DNA from: Escherichia coli
GTDB lineage: Bacteria; Pseudomonadota; Gammaproteobacteria; Enterobacterales; Enterobacteriaceae
Assembly: GCF_036507355.1 (NCBI RefSeq)
Contig: NZ_AP027877.1
Direction: 5' to 3' (one strand)
Length of the DNA: 64,000 bases
Positions 18,487 through 27,481 of this stretch are shown here, piece after piece (within the stretch, counting starts at the first letter, position 1; each line of letters starts with the position of its first letter). The translations under genes and the position numbers were made by a program. Below the pieces are notes generated by a model. It saw only the letters and a list, made by a program, of their open reading frames with translations, had not been told where the DNA came from and ran no database searches.

Positions 18487-18503
18487 TCAATGTTCTGAAT
18501 CTG
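18487..18503. other. attL core (imperfect direct repeat tcaatGttctgaatctg)
   Basis: 17-bp repeat matching 26622..26638 with one mismatch; minus-strand reading gives ...QIQNIE-stop, i.e. a second copy of the yicC C-terminus. Confidence 0.7.
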
Positions 18504-18647
18504 AATATTGAATTGTGGGTTATATGTATTGATATTTAAATGATTTTTGTTTTTCTGGTTTTGCTTGTGTACACGTAGGGGTACATGGATTTACAGGGAT
18601 TACAATTTTTATTGTGTGATTTATGACCAATTGTAATTTTGTGTAAG

Positions 18648-18941
18648 TCACGCCGTGATCTTCATTAAAACATTATCAACAAAAACCCATTCGGGGTGAG
18701 AGGTGGGCGCTGGCATTTTTGTTTTACGTTCGCGCCGTGGATCTGCGATTTCAAAGGCTGGCGTCATAAATCTGAAAGTCATTGCTTCCGCATAAGCCTG
18801 GCTGAATCCATAACGACGCAGCTCATGAATTAACGCCTCATCATCCAGATCCAGCGCGTAAACCTCTTCAGCAATAGCGGCGGCAATCTGTAGGCGGGTG
18901 CTGTTGGGCAAGCGGTTCACATTCAGCATGACAGACTCCAT
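18648..18941 (-). CDS. hypothetical protein (97 aa), island cargo
   Basis: ORF MESVMLNVNRLPNSTRLQIAAAIAEEVYALDLDDEALIHELRRYGF...; no family recognised; begins 9 nt after a terminator hairpin so expression context is unclear. Confidence 0.45.
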   Translation of the reverse strand: MESVMLNVNRLPNSTRLQIAAAIAEEVYALDLDDEALIHELRRYGFSQAYAEAMTFRFMTPAFEIADPRRERKTKMPAPTSHPEWVFVDNVLMKITA

Positions 18942-18947
18942 CAGGTC

Positions 18948-18971
18948 AAAAGAAACCGCCTTTCGGCGGCG
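18948..18971 (-). terminator. rho-independent terminator inside cargo cluster
   Basis: minus-strand gccgcc-gaaa-ggcgg stem-loop followed by TTTCTTTT. Confidence 0.6.
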
Positions 18972-18989
18972 CTTGGCAGTGAGGGAAGG

Positions 18990-19052
18990 TTACGGGCAGA
19001 TAAGCATCAGGTAGCAGTACAGCATCACACAGAGCGCATATGCCTCAGTCAT
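18990..19052 (-). CDS. possible 20-aa hydrophobic Cys-rich peptide (MTEAYALCVMLYCYLMLICP)
   Basis: ATG overlaps the TGA of the upstream 62-aa ORF (ATGA); hand translation from the sequence; followed by the terminator; could be chance. Confidence 0.25.
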   Translation of the reverse strand: MTEAYALCVMLYCYLMLICP

Positions 19053-19237
19053 GATTTCCCCGCATAGAAGTTCTGGTTAAATAGCTTCTGACTCATCCCC
19101 GTACTATCCGCTTTGCCACCAGAATAAAAAGCCTTGTTAAAGTCAGATTGACTGCTACCACTGAAGGAAGTGCCAGTTTTGCCCTCTCGCGCTTCACGCG
19201 CTTTTCTCAATGCCTCGATTACGGATGCTTTACTCAT
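19049..19237 (-). CDS. hypothetical small protein (62 aa), island cargo
   Basis: ORF MSKASVIEALRKAREAREGKTGTSFSGSSQSDFNKAFYSGGK...; GAGGG Shine-Dalgarno upstream; start overlaps stop of upstream gene (ATGA). Confidence 0.55.
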   Translation of the reverse strand: MSKASVIEALRKAREAREGKTGTSFSGSSQSDFNKAFYSGGKADSTGMSQKLFNQNFYAGKS

Positions 19238-19638
19238 CGTGCAAACCCTCGTGTAATACTGGTGTAACCTCGACCGGCTGCTTTGCTCAGTTCATTCAGG
19301 CCATTGGTCACAACCTTCGATTCCCAACCGATAACCCCATTAATAGAGCGCGGCAAAGGGAAGTTCCCGTCCCTGCTCCATTCCTTCAATTTGGCAGTGG
19401 TGAGTGCTTTGCCATATTGGCGCTGATATCTCACACAAACATCATCAGGGCTTACCAGACCCACTTTGCTGAGGCCCAACGGCGAGTGAGAGTATTCGAT
19501 TTGCTTTACATACCAACCATCACCAACGGCGTACAGACCGGATGGATGGCGCTTACACTCATCAGCTTGGCGGCGTTGTTCTGCTGCTTGCTTTTGTTCA
19601 ATCAAAATTGTTTCTAACTCAGTCATTGGTGTCACCAT
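19234..19638 (-). CDS. hypothetical protein (134 aa), first gene of island cargo cluster
   Basis: ORF MVTPMTELETILIEQKQAAEQRRQADECKRHPSGLYAVGDGWYVKQIEY...; no family recognised. Confidence 0.55.
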   Translation of the reverse strand: MVTPMTELETILIEQKQAAEQRRQADECKRHPSGLYAVGDGWYVKQIEYSHSPLGLSKVGLVSPDDVCVRYQRQYGKALTTAKLKEWSRDGNFPLPRSINGVIGWESKVVTNGLNELSKAAGRGYTSITRGFAR

Positions 19639-24995: not shown

Positions 24996-25049
24996 TTTTC
25001 ACCCTGCCTGTCTTTTATTTGTTCGATTGATGTTCGGGCCAGAAATTTT

Positions 25050-25158
25050 TGTCCCGTCCTGTCCCGTCTTTTGTCCCGGTTTTGTCCCATAACCATTCTT
25101 GTAACCAGCTGTATTTATTGAGTCTTTACAAAACGGGACAAACGGGACAGATGGGACA
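25050..25158. repeat. second iteron cluster (4x TGTCCC, ~45-bp spacer, 3x GGGACA); crr-like site or operator
   Basis: Hexamers at 25050, 25060, 25072, 25083, 25135, 25144, 25153; same hexamer and architecture as 20556..20665, ~4.5 kb away. Confidence 0.55.
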
Positions 25159-25181
25159 AGCAAAAAAACAATATTGAAAAT

Positions 25182-26441
25182 CTATCTGGCTTGCCTCAGT
25201 GGTGTAACGTTGTACTCTTCGCCCCGTTCAAGCGCTTCCATCAGGTTGCCCAGCATGGCCAGCGCTTCCCGCCGTTCGTTTAAATATTGGTGACGGTTGT
25301 AGATGCCTTCGACGCCTTTAATGCGGTGATTAAGGCAACGTTCGGCAACGATAGGATCAACGCCCAGCGCTCCTAAGTGGGTTCGGGCGGTGCGCCTAAG
25401 GTCGTGAATAGTGAAGTTAGGTACGCCCGGCATTGCCTGCTTAACCTTCGCCAGCGCAACGGGCAGGGTGCTTTCCTGAATGTGGGGGATCATGCGGTGC
25501 TGTTGTTTTCGCGCAGGTAGTACCCATTTGCTGTTACAGGAAAGAAGGCGCAATTCTTCAAGCCATTCGATAGCCTGCTTTGGCAGCGGAATATCAATCC
25601 CGTCGCCCGTCTTTGTACGCTCGCCCGGCAAGTACCAAATGCCATTGGCTAAATCGAACTCGCTCCAGCGTGCGGCGCATAGCTCCATCTTTCTCACGCA
25701 AGTGACCAGCAGCAGCTTTATCGTCAATTCGTTCTCGCGGCTAAAGCCTTTCGCCATTCGCATGGCTTCAAAGAGTTGAACCAGTTCCGGCCTGGTTAAC
25801 CATCGTTCTCGAGATGTTTCCTTACCGCCCGCGTCACTTATATCAAAGGCGGCTGCGGGGTTAACCTCAATCATTCCCAGCTTGATCGCATGGTCAAAGA
25901 TGCGGCGTACCCATCGCAGGACGTCATTAGCAACGGATGGCGCACCACGTTTTAAGATGGCCTGAAGCAAGGCATCAATATCTCGGGGTTTGACGTCCTT
26001 AACCTTTTTCTGACCTATGCGAGGATTAATGTCTTTCGCCAGACGACGGCGGAGGATGTCGGGGTGTTTCCATGTACCCAGTACTTTCTTCTTAAAATAG
26101 TCTTCAGCTACTTCGGACACTGTTTTGTCATGCTGGTCGGCTTCCAACTGGGCTTTTAATGCGGCTTTTCGCTCCTGCTTCTCACCGGCAACGTCATACC
26201 CCAGGGAAACACGAGCAGCCAGCTCTCGGGTGATCTCCCGGGCTTTAGCCAGTGAGATAACGCCATACGCGCCAATTGTCATAACACGAGGCTTGCCAGC
26301 GAAGCGGTAGCGGAAACGCCATGATGGGGACGTGTCAGTAGTGCGATAGCGCAAATATAAACCGTTACCGTCCGATTTACCCTCGAACCTTGTTCCGGCC
26401 TTTATCCAGGCCTTGATCTGAATGTCTGTTAGCTTGCCCAT
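25182..26441 (-). CDS. int: tyrosine site-specific integrase (P4-type)
   Basis: 419-aa ORF; N-terminal arm-binding-like domain (GLYLRYR), C-terminal catalytic residues (HDLRRTARTHL ... GIYNRHQY); adjacent to attR. Confidence 0.85.
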   Translation of the reverse strand: MGKLTDIQIKAWIKAGTRFEGKSDGNGLYLRYRTTDTSPSWRFRYRFAGKPRVMTIGAYGVISLAKAREITRELAARVSLGYDVAGEKQERKAALKAQLEADQHDKTVSEVAEDYFKKKVLGTWKHPDILRRRLAKDINPRIGQKKVKDVKPRDIDALLQAILKRGAPSVANDVLRWVRRIFDHAIKLGMIEVNPAAAFDISDAGGKETSRERWLTRPELVQLFEAMRMAKGFSRENELTIKLLLVTCVRKMELCAARWSEFDLANGIWYLPGERTKTGDGIDIPLPKQAIEWLEELRLLSCNSKWVLPARKQQHRMIPHIQESTLPVALAKVKQAMPGVPNFTIHDLRRTARTHLGALGVDPIVAERCLNHRIKGVEGIYNRHQYLNERREALAMLGNLMEALERGEEYNVTPLRQAR

Positions 26442-26553
26442 ATCACCTCATTGGTTGCGTACCCTATCTACTTAATGCCTCTGCCTCATAGGGACACTAT
26501 TGGGTACACGAGAAATATGCGCTTTTATGATGCTAACTGCAACTTTGTGATAT

Positions 26554-26579
26554 GAAAAAAGCCCGTGATTAGCGGGCTT
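26554..26579 (-). terminator. rho-independent terminator supplied by the island for yicC
   Basis: minus-strand agcccg-ctaatca-cgggct hairpin followed by TTTTTT, ~40 nt downstream of the yicC stop, inside the island. Confidence 0.6.
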
Positions 26580-26617
26580 TGTAGGTGGTGTGATTCTGTA
26601 TGATATGGGGTGATACG

Positions 26618-27481
26618 CTACTCAATATTCTGAATCTGCTCGCGCATCTGCTCAATCAACACTTTCAGCTCGATGGCGGAGTTTGTCACTTCGGCGTTGA
26701 TAGATTTCGACGCAAGAGTGTTCGACTCGCGGTTGAACTCCTGCATCATAAAGTCCAGACGACGACCAACGGCTTCTTTTTTCTTCAGAATGTTGTAGGT
26801 CTCTTTGACATGCGCTTCGAGGCGGTCCAGTTCTTCGGCAACGTCAATTCGTTGTGCCAGCAGAACCAACTCCTGCTCCAGACGGTTGTTTTCCAACTGC
26901 ACCTGAGCATCTTCCAGCTTCGCGACCAAGCGTTCACGCTGCCATTGCAGGATTTCCGGCATATGGGAGCGGACTTTGACCACTTCGGCGGTGACGCCTT
27001 CCAGACGCTGCTCAATCAACGCTTTCAGCGCCTGACCTTCGGTTTCGCGAGCGATGATAAAGTCATCCAGGGTGCCATCCAACGCTGCGAGAATTTCAGC
27101 GGCAATCGCGTCGAGATCTTGCTCCTGGGCCGCCATCACGCCCGGCCAGCGTAGAATATCAACCGGGTTGATTTCCCCTTCGTCACTCTGCATTTTTACC
27201 CAGTTCGCGGCAGTTACCAGCTGTTTAGCCAGTTTTTCGTTGAGGATCAGCTCACCTTGCGCGCTAACATCTGGCTCATAGCGCAGAGTACATTCCACTT
27301 TACCGCGCGTCAGGCGAGAACGAATACGCTCACGAACGACAGGTTCAAGGCTACGGAACTGCTCCGGCAGACGAAAGTAAGTTTCCAGATAACGCTGGTT
27401 TACCGAGCGCATTTCCCAGGTTGCGCTCCCCCATTCACCCTTGATTTCACGCCGGGCGTAGGCGGTCATACTGCGGATCAT
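26618..27481 (-). CDS. yicC: YicC-family stress-induced protein
   Basis: 287-aa ORF MIRSMTAYARREIKGEWGSATWEMRSVNQRYLE... ending ...EQIQNIE. Confidence 0.9.
   Translation of the reverse strand: MIRSMTAYARREIKGEWGSATWEMRSVNQRYLETYFRLPEQFRSLEPVVRERIRSRLTRGKVECTLRYEPDVSAQGELILNEKLAKQLVTAANWVKMQSDEGEINPVDILRWPGVMAAQEQDLDAIAAEILAALDGTLDDFIIARETEGQALKALIEQRLEGVTAEVVKVRSHMPEILQWQRERLVAKLEDAQVQLENNRLEQELVLLAQRIDVAEELDRLEAHVKETYNILKKKEAVGRRLDFMMQEFNRESNTLASKSINAEVTNSAIELKVLIEQMREQIQNIE
26622..26638. other. attR core (tcaatAttctgaatctg) within the last codons of yicC
   Basis: 17-bp direct repeat of 18487..18503 with one mismatch. Confidence 0.7.

Follow-up and report, generated by a model that had tools for sequence, protein, structure and literature searches.

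What kind of mobile element occupies the 3' end of yicC in this Escherichia coli chromosome, and how would it move? The stretch that was analysed (the window: 64,000 nucleotides of contig NZ_AP027877.1, assembly GCF_036507355.1, numbered from its first letter) has the gene order ligB-yicG-dinD-island-yicC-rph-pyrE, in which the island, taken between the cores of its attachment (att) sites, is 8,135 bp long. The original prediction, made from the letters of the window, placed a compact, integrase-bounded island resembling P4 and the phage-inducible chromosomal islands (PICIs) in the 3' end of yicC, and the limits that it gave, 18487-26638, do bracket the element. We think that the island is probably an intact, minimal phage satellite, similar to the PICIs and to the PICMIs (minimalist chromosomal islands that are phage-inducible), which belongs to an undescribed enterobacterial family; a satellite lifestyle, with dependence on a helper, is what we infer for it. 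Judged by its genes, the replicon is of the type found in PICIs and Staphylococcus aureus pathogenicity islands (SaPIs), in that a Toprim primase is paired with a DUF927 helicase whose homologues include SaPI Rep and Cch, and a predicted origin of hexameric iterons lies 3' of the helicase gene. The most distinctive features are an inverted duplicate iteron array, the two arrays bracketing the replication operon, and a conserved AlpA-like module of three genes, p134, p62 and p97.

A predicted SaPI-type origin and its inverted copy

The first iteron array, array A (Table 1), has an AT-rich centre of ∼45 bp, with three to four TGTCCC hexamers on one side of it and three GGGACA hexamers on the other. 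SaPI origins comprise 6-12 penta- or hexanucleotide iterons right downstream of rep. An AT-rich centre divides these into two halves of opposite orientation, and Rep binds them through its winged-helix C-terminal domain (PMC9371898). Array A closely fits this published layout, and an analogous array follows the primase gene of the E. coli PICI EcCICFT073. Array B, which lies 4.5 kb away, is an inverted copy of array A, with four TGTCCC hexamers, an AT-rich centre and three GGGACA hexamers. The two have the 23-mer CGGGACAGATGGGACAAGCAAAA in common, and together they hold 14 of the 28 occurrences of the hexamer in the window. Both arrays, which define the replicon, were overlooked in the original prediction. 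A search of Rfam gave no match at E<=1 besides sub-threshold noise on array B.

The lineage of the helicase fits with this layout. Its matches in the PDB are 5dgk, the Cch protein of the staphylococcal cassette SCCmec (E 4.5e-12), and 8tch, a SaPI protein deposited as ‘Pathogenicity island protein’ (E 4e-11), and the NCBIfam model of SCCmec Cch1 also matches it, below cutoff.

To see which component of the island the arrays go with, the locus was compared with its relatives (12 loci in all, designated L001, L003 and so on where they need to be told apart). Across loci that keep the arrays the hexamers are invariant and the spacers have diverged. Both arrays are kept in Citrobacter, in L005 and L007, where the regulator alone has been swapped, and in L010, even though it differs in integrase, regulator and AlpA. 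No such hexamer clusters are present in L020, which has the p134-p62-p97 trio together with a YfjI replicase. Where the primase is of the D5 type (L009, L016), different repeats (AAGTCC, GACGGA) take the place of array A, and array B persists beside an integrase that is 96-98% identical, a pattern consistent with a recent recombinant. This pattern of module swaps indicates that the arrays belong to the p153-Toprim-DUF927 module, and not to the regulator, AlpA, the integrase or the trio. We had also considered the GGGACA arrays as operators of the 283-aa regulator, of AlpA or of the trio, and rejected this because they outlast exchanges of regulator, AlpA and integrase (L005, L007, L010) and are missing from the trio-bearing L020.

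Array A is therefore the predicted origin of replication, on the grounds of its layout and its association with the replicase genes, and array B would be a second replicase-binding site, situated in the promoter region of the replication operon. By analogy, array B could serve as a cis-acting replication enhancer like crr of P4, or as an autoregulatory operator. In P4, as is also well established, the alpha protein binds ori as well as crr (PMC6092414).

A conserved backbone with exchangeable modules

In the loci compared, the order of genes and sites is int, a swappable gene, alpA, the replication module, a terminator and an iteron array, followed by a variable slot, p134-p62, a terminator, p97 and attL. 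The gene between int and alpA encodes a 283-aa protein with a MerR-type helix-turn-helix (HTH) in the window and unrelated proteins of ∼200 aa elsewhere. The replication module has three forms, namely p153 with Toprim and DUF927 proteins, as in the window, a zinc-binding protein with a D5-type primase (L009, L016), and a 139-aa protein with a YfjI-family primase-helicase (L020). In the last of these loci (L020 14303-16151; ET915, between ubiV and yhbW), an overlap of 8 nt joins a 226-aa gene to the 3' end of the integrase gene, an arrangement that recalls iolg, a gene that PICMIs need for excision.

Throughout these exchanges the trio p134, p62 and p97 is the most conserved signature of the family, persisting across integrases, att sites, replicases and genera. 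The original prediction regarded the four genes that follow the helicase gene as cargo. This description holds for the 151-aa gene, which lies in the variable slot, but the 134-, 62- and 97-aa genes are part of the backbone. The central domain of p134 aligns with AlpA (hhalign probability 92%, E 5e-7), so that three HTH proteins of the general AlpA/MerR kind are encoded in the island, AlpA, the 283-aa protein and p134. Homologues of p134 are confined to related islands and to certain elements of 13-14 kb described below. One of them bears the label ‘PrtN family’ in its NCBI record, which a Pfam search with 14 members did not confirm. The AlphaFold2 (AF2) model obtained for p134 had a low confidence (pLDDT 58), and the matches that Foldseek gave for it were meaningless. 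The p97 protein is probably 93 aa long in truth, starting at MLNVNRL, and its AF2 model (mean pLDDT 73) has a bundle of three helices and then, at the C-terminus, a beta-hairpin. Pfam, PHROG and PDB searches with p97 had no match, and its model gave no significant fold match in PDB or BFVD.

The region upstream of p134 (19639..20041) is non-coding and rich in repeats. Just upstream of p134 are two 30-bp direct repeats (GTACTAGC..GGTACA; 19645-19704), further away are three repeats with a periodicity of 11 bp (19914-19955), and GGTGATATCAG occurs twice in the region. The proximal ∼150 nt are conserved in the ET915 and Citrobacter islands (85% identity in Citrobacter), although the neighbouring genes differ. 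The region is a candidate promoter/operator or packaging signal.

The slot itself is empty in L003 and L004, contains a TM2 protein and a 146-aa signal-peptide-like protein in L001, L006 and L007, a 205-aa protein in L015 and L011, and a single 151-aa protein in the window and four other genomes. The N-terminus of the 151-aa protein looks like a signal peptide when judged by eye. The protein is 65% identical to a 137-aa protein that lies beside a TM2 protein in L020, and its family comprises 7 representative clusters in 1.8 billion proteins; p153, p97, p134 and the 151-aa protein all belong to very small families limited to such elements. The initial ∼50 codons of the 151-aa gene (20349-20497) are 91.5% identical in nucleotides to those of the 146-aa gene of the TM2-type cassette (L001 5570-5680), which places the cassette breakpoint within the coding region, after the N-terminal hydrophobic segment. 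The original prediction noted that such elements are known to carry variable accessory and defence cargo. The appeal of defence cargo found no support here, the 151-aa gene belonging to a tiny orphan family with no match to a known defence family (PADLOC) or in Pfam or PHROGs. Across all ten proteins, PADLOC returned only trivial HTH matches for AlpA.

Integration site and gene content

The island is flanked by an imperfect direct repeat of 41 nt (18463-18503 and 26598-26638), which terminates in an exact core of 11 bp, TTCTGAATCTG. The original 3' end of yicC, ttattcaatgTTCTGAATCTG, has been displaced to attL (18483-18503), and the last six codons of yicC (QIQNIE*) are encoded by the island at attR (26618-26638), a synonymous replacement. 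When aligned, the yicC-dinD interval of K-12 is an uninterrupted site with a single copy of the repeat. Identity of the att segment reaches 20 bp in several relatives (TACTCAATATTCTGAATCTG), and the crossover could therefore lie at any point within ∼20 bp. A tRNA scan found no tRNA gene in the window, and the island is therefore not in a tRNA gene. The GC content is 0.40-0.45 in the left third of the island, as against 0.52-0.55 in the flanks.

All ten open reading frames (ORFs) of the island are intact and lie on the minus strand (Table 1), and the layout proposed for them, with integrase, HTH protein, AlpA, primase and helicase, is borne out by matches in PHROGs and Pfam. An integrase homologue from Citrobacter, 92% identical, has the Pfam domains Arm-DNA-bind_3, Phage_int_M and Phage_integrase, which is the P4-type architecture, and the Citrobacter homologue of AlpA (58% identical) matches Phage_AlpA; AlpA itself is of the ordinary HTH_17/AlpA kind. 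The coupling of the primase and helicase genes by an ATGA overlap is real, and overlaps of the same kind are found between alpA and the 153-aa gene and between the 134- and 62-aa genes. The original prediction had proposed the catalytic residues as a check on whether the island is an inert remnant, and these are kept: the integrase has the R in VRKMEL, the K in TKTG, the H-x-x-R in HDLRRT and the terminal Y, the Toprim primase has its E and DxD in the motifs EGYATA and AADND, and the helicase has its Walker A motif.

Table 1. Features of the yicC island and their positions in the window
Feature	Position	Strand	Basis and remarks
attL core TTCTGAATCTG	18493..18503	none	Direct repeat, comparison with the empty K-12 site, att variants of relatives
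p97	18648..18941	minus	Conserved backbone, in all family members
Terminator-like hairpin	18955..18970	minus	Between p62 and p97
p62, 62 aa, Gly/Ser-rich	19049..19237	minus	Conserved backbone; ATGA-coupled to p134
p134, 134 aa	19234..19638	minus	AlpA-like winged HTH, N-terminal helix; second such protein; family signature gene
Non-coding region upstream of p134	19639..20041	none	Repeats; conservation with relatives
Variable-slot protein, 151 aa	20042..20497	minus	Slot boundaries by comparison with relatives
Iteron array A, predicted origin	20555..20668 (114 bp)	none	Directly 3' of helicase gene, beyond terminator-like hairpin
Terminator-like hairpin	20730..20753	minus	Closes regulator-alpA-primase-helicase operon
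DUF927 helicase/initiator, 568 aa	20759-22465	minus	phrog_1139, E 4e-72; Walker A GASSSGKS
Toprim primase, 289 aa	22462-23331	minus	phrog_2249, E 1e-52; RefSeq annotation of relatives
p153, 153 aa	23399-23860	minus	No family match
AlpA-family regulator/excisionase-like, 57 aa	23857-24030	minus	phrog_66 and phrog_2790
19-bp perfect tandem repeat (CAAAGTAGGTCTTCACTTT, twice)	24113..24150	none	Repeat analysis
283-aa protein, MerR-type HTH	24144-24995	minus	Pfam PF00376, E 2.9e-4, residues 19-43
Iteron array B	25048..25160	none	Between int stop and start of regulator operon (283-aa gene)
Tyrosine integrase, 419 aa	25182-26441	minus	phrog_1, E 1e-71
Terminator-like hairpin	26558..26580	minus	Island-supplied, 3' of rebuilt yicC end
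attR core TTCTGAATCTG	26628..26638	none	Direct repeat, K-12 comparison, att variants of relatives

Searches of Pfam, PHROGs, NCBIfam and PDB sequences with the 283-, 153-, 151-, 134-, 62- and 97-aa proteins found only the MerR HTH. The 283-aa protein is a candidate repressor or helper sensor. The p153 protein, which has only 4 homologue clusters, accompanies Toprim and DUF927 in L010, L015, L018 and L019 and is missing where the replicase is swapped, and is a candidate accessory origin-binding or loading factor. The tandem repeat CAAAGTAGGTCTTCACTTT spans the stop of the 283-aa gene, ∼80 nt upstream of alpA, and may be an operator or a recent duplication.

Distribution and spread

Presence was scored in 5426 complete E. 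coli genomes, with the integrase scored at a coverage of at least 80%. The flanks on the yicC and dinD sides were matched in 5424 of them. There are 32 genomes with the integrase, 26 with the primase-helicase and 36 with the terminal three genes, and the share of complete E. coli genomes with the island is about 0.6%. Together with the empty site of K-12, this establishes the presence/absence polymorphism at yicC-dinD for which the original prediction had proposed to look. Carriers always have one copy, which is always chromosomal and never on a plasmid, and they come from frogs, pigs, poultry, humans, sediment, river water and seawater. Between E. coli carriers from several continents the primase-helicase DNA is 99-99.9% identical.

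Islands in yicC whose proteins are 92-95% identical are present in Citrobacter portucalensis, Kluyvera cryocrescens and Shimwellia, and homologues of p153 also occur in Atlantibacter. There is a second att site, as L010 has the same backbone between ubiV and yhbW, with an integrase that is only 23% identical. The near identity of the DNA across hosts, together with the homologous islands in other genera, points to recent horizontal spread, and on these comparisons we take the family to be rare but actively spreading, and not a fixed relic. Literature searches found no published description of it, either as islands at yicC/dinD or as elements with DUF927 and AlpA.

Decay of the locus is also seen. 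In L011 (NZ_OY754834.1, 4400-8190) the yicC island is without integrase, regulator, alpA, primase and half of the helicase gene, and the ET490 island is interrupted by an insertion sequence (IS). In H3 (NZ_CP100947.1), ISKox3 is inserted in the island.

Comparison with known satellites

We compared the island with the PICIs by the criteria of Fillol-Salom et al. 2018 (PMC6092414) and the PICI model of SatelliteFinder. An att site with its own integrase, an AlpA regulator, a pri-rep pair and the PICI organisation of the origin are all present. The likeness to PICIs and SaPIs extends to the integrase at one end, AlpA upstream of the primase and helicase, a helicase homologous to SaPI Rep (8tch), an origin of opposed iterons 3' of rep, a size of ∼8 kb, an accessory slot after the replicon and the lack of tail and lysis genes. 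In contrast to EcCICFT073-type PICIs and SaPIs, none of the packaging and interference module was found in the island: there is no terminase small subunit (TerS), Rpp, Ppi, capsid-morphogenesis gene or helper cos. Further differences are that the island genes are all co-directional, that a swappable HTH protein lies between int and alpA, that there is a second iteron array, and that p134, p62 and p97 stand in the place of the packaging module. When the island was compared with EcCICFT073 by tblastn, the integrase was the sole match, at 25% identity, and the PICI-exclusive gene set is not shared.

With three PICI core genes, the island would be Type C under the SatelliteFinder scheme. EcCIMP1, which the authors of its study place in Type C by SatelliteFinder scoring, is mobilised by a helper (PMC11773190), and experiments have shown that AlpA drives the induction of similar int-alpA-primase islands, namely EcCICFT073 (PMC6092414), EcCIMP1 (PMC11773190) and PICMI (PMC10803314). 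In gene economy, the PICMI of Vibrionaceae appears to be the closest functional analogue. Besides int and alpA it has a small unknown gene, a primase and a hotspot, and it is packaged as concatemers with no remodelling genes (PMC10803314). The island shares with it the minimal gene set, the slot after the replicase, the ATGA-coupled genes and the lack of capsid-remodelling or terminase genes, and by this analogy its gene set suggests concatemer packaging in full-size heads. It differs from PICMI in its host family, in its att site (yicC as against fis), in its replicase (Toprim and DUF927 as against DUF3987/DUF5906), in lacking an iolg that overlaps int, and in having the terminal trio and the double iteron array.

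Several results weigh against the interpretation as a phage satellite. The island DNA has no similarity to any of 50,697 phage records (blastn), no phage homologue of p134 or p97 was found by tblastn, and the structure models of these two proteins gave no significant matches. No lambda- or P2-type cos was found in the island; P2/186 cos was not found within 3 mismatches, and the cos sequences of lambda, P2, 186 and HK97 and the pac of P22 gave only two-mismatch chance matches inside coding regions. The island in the window has neither the TerS-like DUF5681 gene seen in some relatives nor a remnant of it. A search for the attP junction pattern had zero matches in metagenome and viral contig collections, and the two metagenome contigs in which the iteron pattern located the island both have it in the integrated form. 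No helper phage was found for the island. Finally, elements with int, alpA and a primase only (Type C) were set aside by the authors of SatelliteFinder as ambiguous, possibly functional (PMC10085698).

Relatives provide two indirect links to phages. In L015 and L020, a 147-aa DUF5681 protein and two small neighbouring ORFs lie between the slot and p134. Among phages, the homologues of DUF5681 occupy the first position in the genome; in Burkholderia phages their annotation is terminase small subunit, and in Vibrio phages they adjoin the terminase. Most E. coli members of the family are without DUF5681. The second link is through circular elements of 13-14 kb, in which p134-p62 and DUF5681 are found again, at 80-87% identity.

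These circular elements (L012, which is the whole record NZ_CP055032.1, L013, L014 and L017 1-12591) include one deposited as a Shigella flexneri plasmid. Besides DUF5681 and the p134 and p62 homologues, they encode ParA, an Arc-family protein, a Xer-like integrase, Toprim, a VapE helicase, and tape-measure-like and Dit-like proteins. In an IMG/VR contig, an element of this kind follows directly after the head, neck, sheath, tube and chaperone genes of a myovirus, at the position expected for the tape measure. These elements could be helper-embedded satellites or phage-plasmids. MT836812 (8.7 kb, from a virome), picked up as a possible small satellite through a DUF5681 match, proved to be a phage fragment with tail genes.

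Alternative explanations

Could the island be moved by a non-phage route? An integrative mobilisable or replicative element transferred by conjugation, or in some other way that does not involve a phage, has a precedent in Vibrio, where the 3' end of yicC is the att site of the mobilisable genomic islands (MGIs) MGIVflInd1, MGIVmi1, MGIVchMoz6 and MGIVchUSA1, mobilised by SXT/R391 or IncC elements (PMC5704250). The island shares with MGIVflInd1 and MGIVmi1 this target and a tyrosine integrase. Its lack of packaging and capsid genes and of phage DNA homology would fit such a route as well, and helicases of the DUF927/Cch type are also found on non-phage elements such as SCCmec. Unlike the Vibrio islands, however, it has its own primase-helicase replicon and AlpA, and no oriT-associated or mobilisation genes are recognisable; PHROGs, NCBIfam and Pfam gave no relaxase, MobI-like, coupling-protein or other transfer function among its proteins. 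The exclusively chromosomal location in the genomes surveyed, the combination of AlpA with a SaPI-type pri-rep-ori layout, which is typical of satellites, and the TerS-like protein encoded by relatives all speak for a satellite instead, and we consider conjugative transfer unlikely.

We regard it as similarly improbable that the island is a packaging-defective derivative, domesticated or decaying, which perhaps excises and replicates and is not transferred since it lost its TerS-like module. Such a loss would explain why DUF5681 and its two small neighbours are present in L015 and L020 and absent here with no remnant. The decay documented at this locus, with the loss of the integrase and half of the helicase gene in L011 and the IS insertion in ET490, fits the same picture, as does the failure to detect an excised form in public assemblies. 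Nevertheless, most E. coli members lack DUF5681 and yet are near-identical across unrelated hosts and genera, which speaks for ongoing transfer without DUF5681. Moreover, none of the ten island ORFs in the window is disrupted, the catalytic motifs are kept, and the iterons are invariant.

As to P4, the prediction that the island is ‘P4/PICI-like’ holds for the PICI-type replicon, the att/int arrangement and AlpA, and fails for membership of the P4 group, of which no specific marker was found. The likeness consists of a P4-type integrase and an AlpA/Vis-like HTH regulator (phrog_1, phrog_66), an own primase and helicase, a similar size, and two predicted replicase-binding repeat clusters, which are ∼4.5 kb apart and recall ori and crr of P4. 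In contrast, PHROGs, NCBIfam and Pfam gave no sid, psu, delta or epsilon among the ten ORFs, nor, as the original prediction had already stated, any capsid or terminase gene; PHROGs gave no alpha homologue, and Rfam no CI/C4 immunity RNA. The primase and helicase are encoded separately, and not fused as in P4 alpha. A degenerate P4-family satellite that needs a P2-like helper is therefore very improbable, considering also that no P2/186-type cos was found within 3 mismatches, that the DNA matches no phage or satellite record in the phage collection, and that the helicase is of the SaPI Rep/Cch lineage.

A proposed life cycle

If the island is a minimal phage satellite, its life cycle may be envisaged as follows. 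In the quiescent state yicC would be undamaged, with its last six codons rebuilt and followed by a terminator, and the swappable regulator upstream of alpA would silence the operon. A helper phage would then switch on the operon of regulator, alpA, p153, primase and helicase, as AlpA does in E. coli PICIs and PICMIs. Excision would require the integrase and a directionality factor of the HTH_17 type, for which AlpA, p134 and the 283-aa protein are candidates. The DUF927 helicase/initiator and the Toprim primase would fire array A, whose anatomy is that of an origin and whose activity we infer, and array B would bind the same replicase module, as a cis enhancer like P4 crr or as an autoregulatory operator. 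The multimeric product would be packaged into helper particles, the island having no TerS-like gene, capsid-size genes or recognisable cos of its own. This may occur through a pac-like signal and full-size heads, in the way of PICMIs, through an action of p134, p62 and p97 on the helper, or inefficiently.

A bolder version of the satellite interpretation can be put forward only tentatively, and we think it rather less than an even chance. The island may be the first recognised member of a distinct satellite family, defined by p134, p62 and p97 and combining a SaPI-type Rep with a bipartite origin in the style of P4. It would spread without a packaging gene of its own, with the trio reprogramming the helper (its late genes or its terminase), and fuller relatives would add the TerS-like DUF5681.

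Thousands of int-alpA-primase islands are now set aside as ambiguous, PICI-like ‘Type C’ elements, and this family offers a tractable E. coli example of them. It opens the questions of how little a satellite needs and of how packaging could proceed with no terminase, capsid or cos functions of its own. The family is bounded and modular, with natural members that have the TerS-like gene and others that do not, and with three types of replicase interchanged on one backbone. The duplicated iteron array ties the SaPI-type Rep helicases to the ori/crr logic of replication control in P4. For those who look to such islands for defence genes the outcome is sobering, since the sole variable gene here encodes an orphan, signal-peptide-like protein with no recognised defence signature.

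The dinD junction

Beside attL, dinD is a pseudogene (17439-18273, minus strand), with its ORF split into three frames. Compared with DinD of K-12, the initial ∼100 codons are 45% identical and the rest 89-98%, and this pattern of identity suggests a recombination patch at the island junction. The dinD gene of strain PSS-04 likewise has an internal stop.

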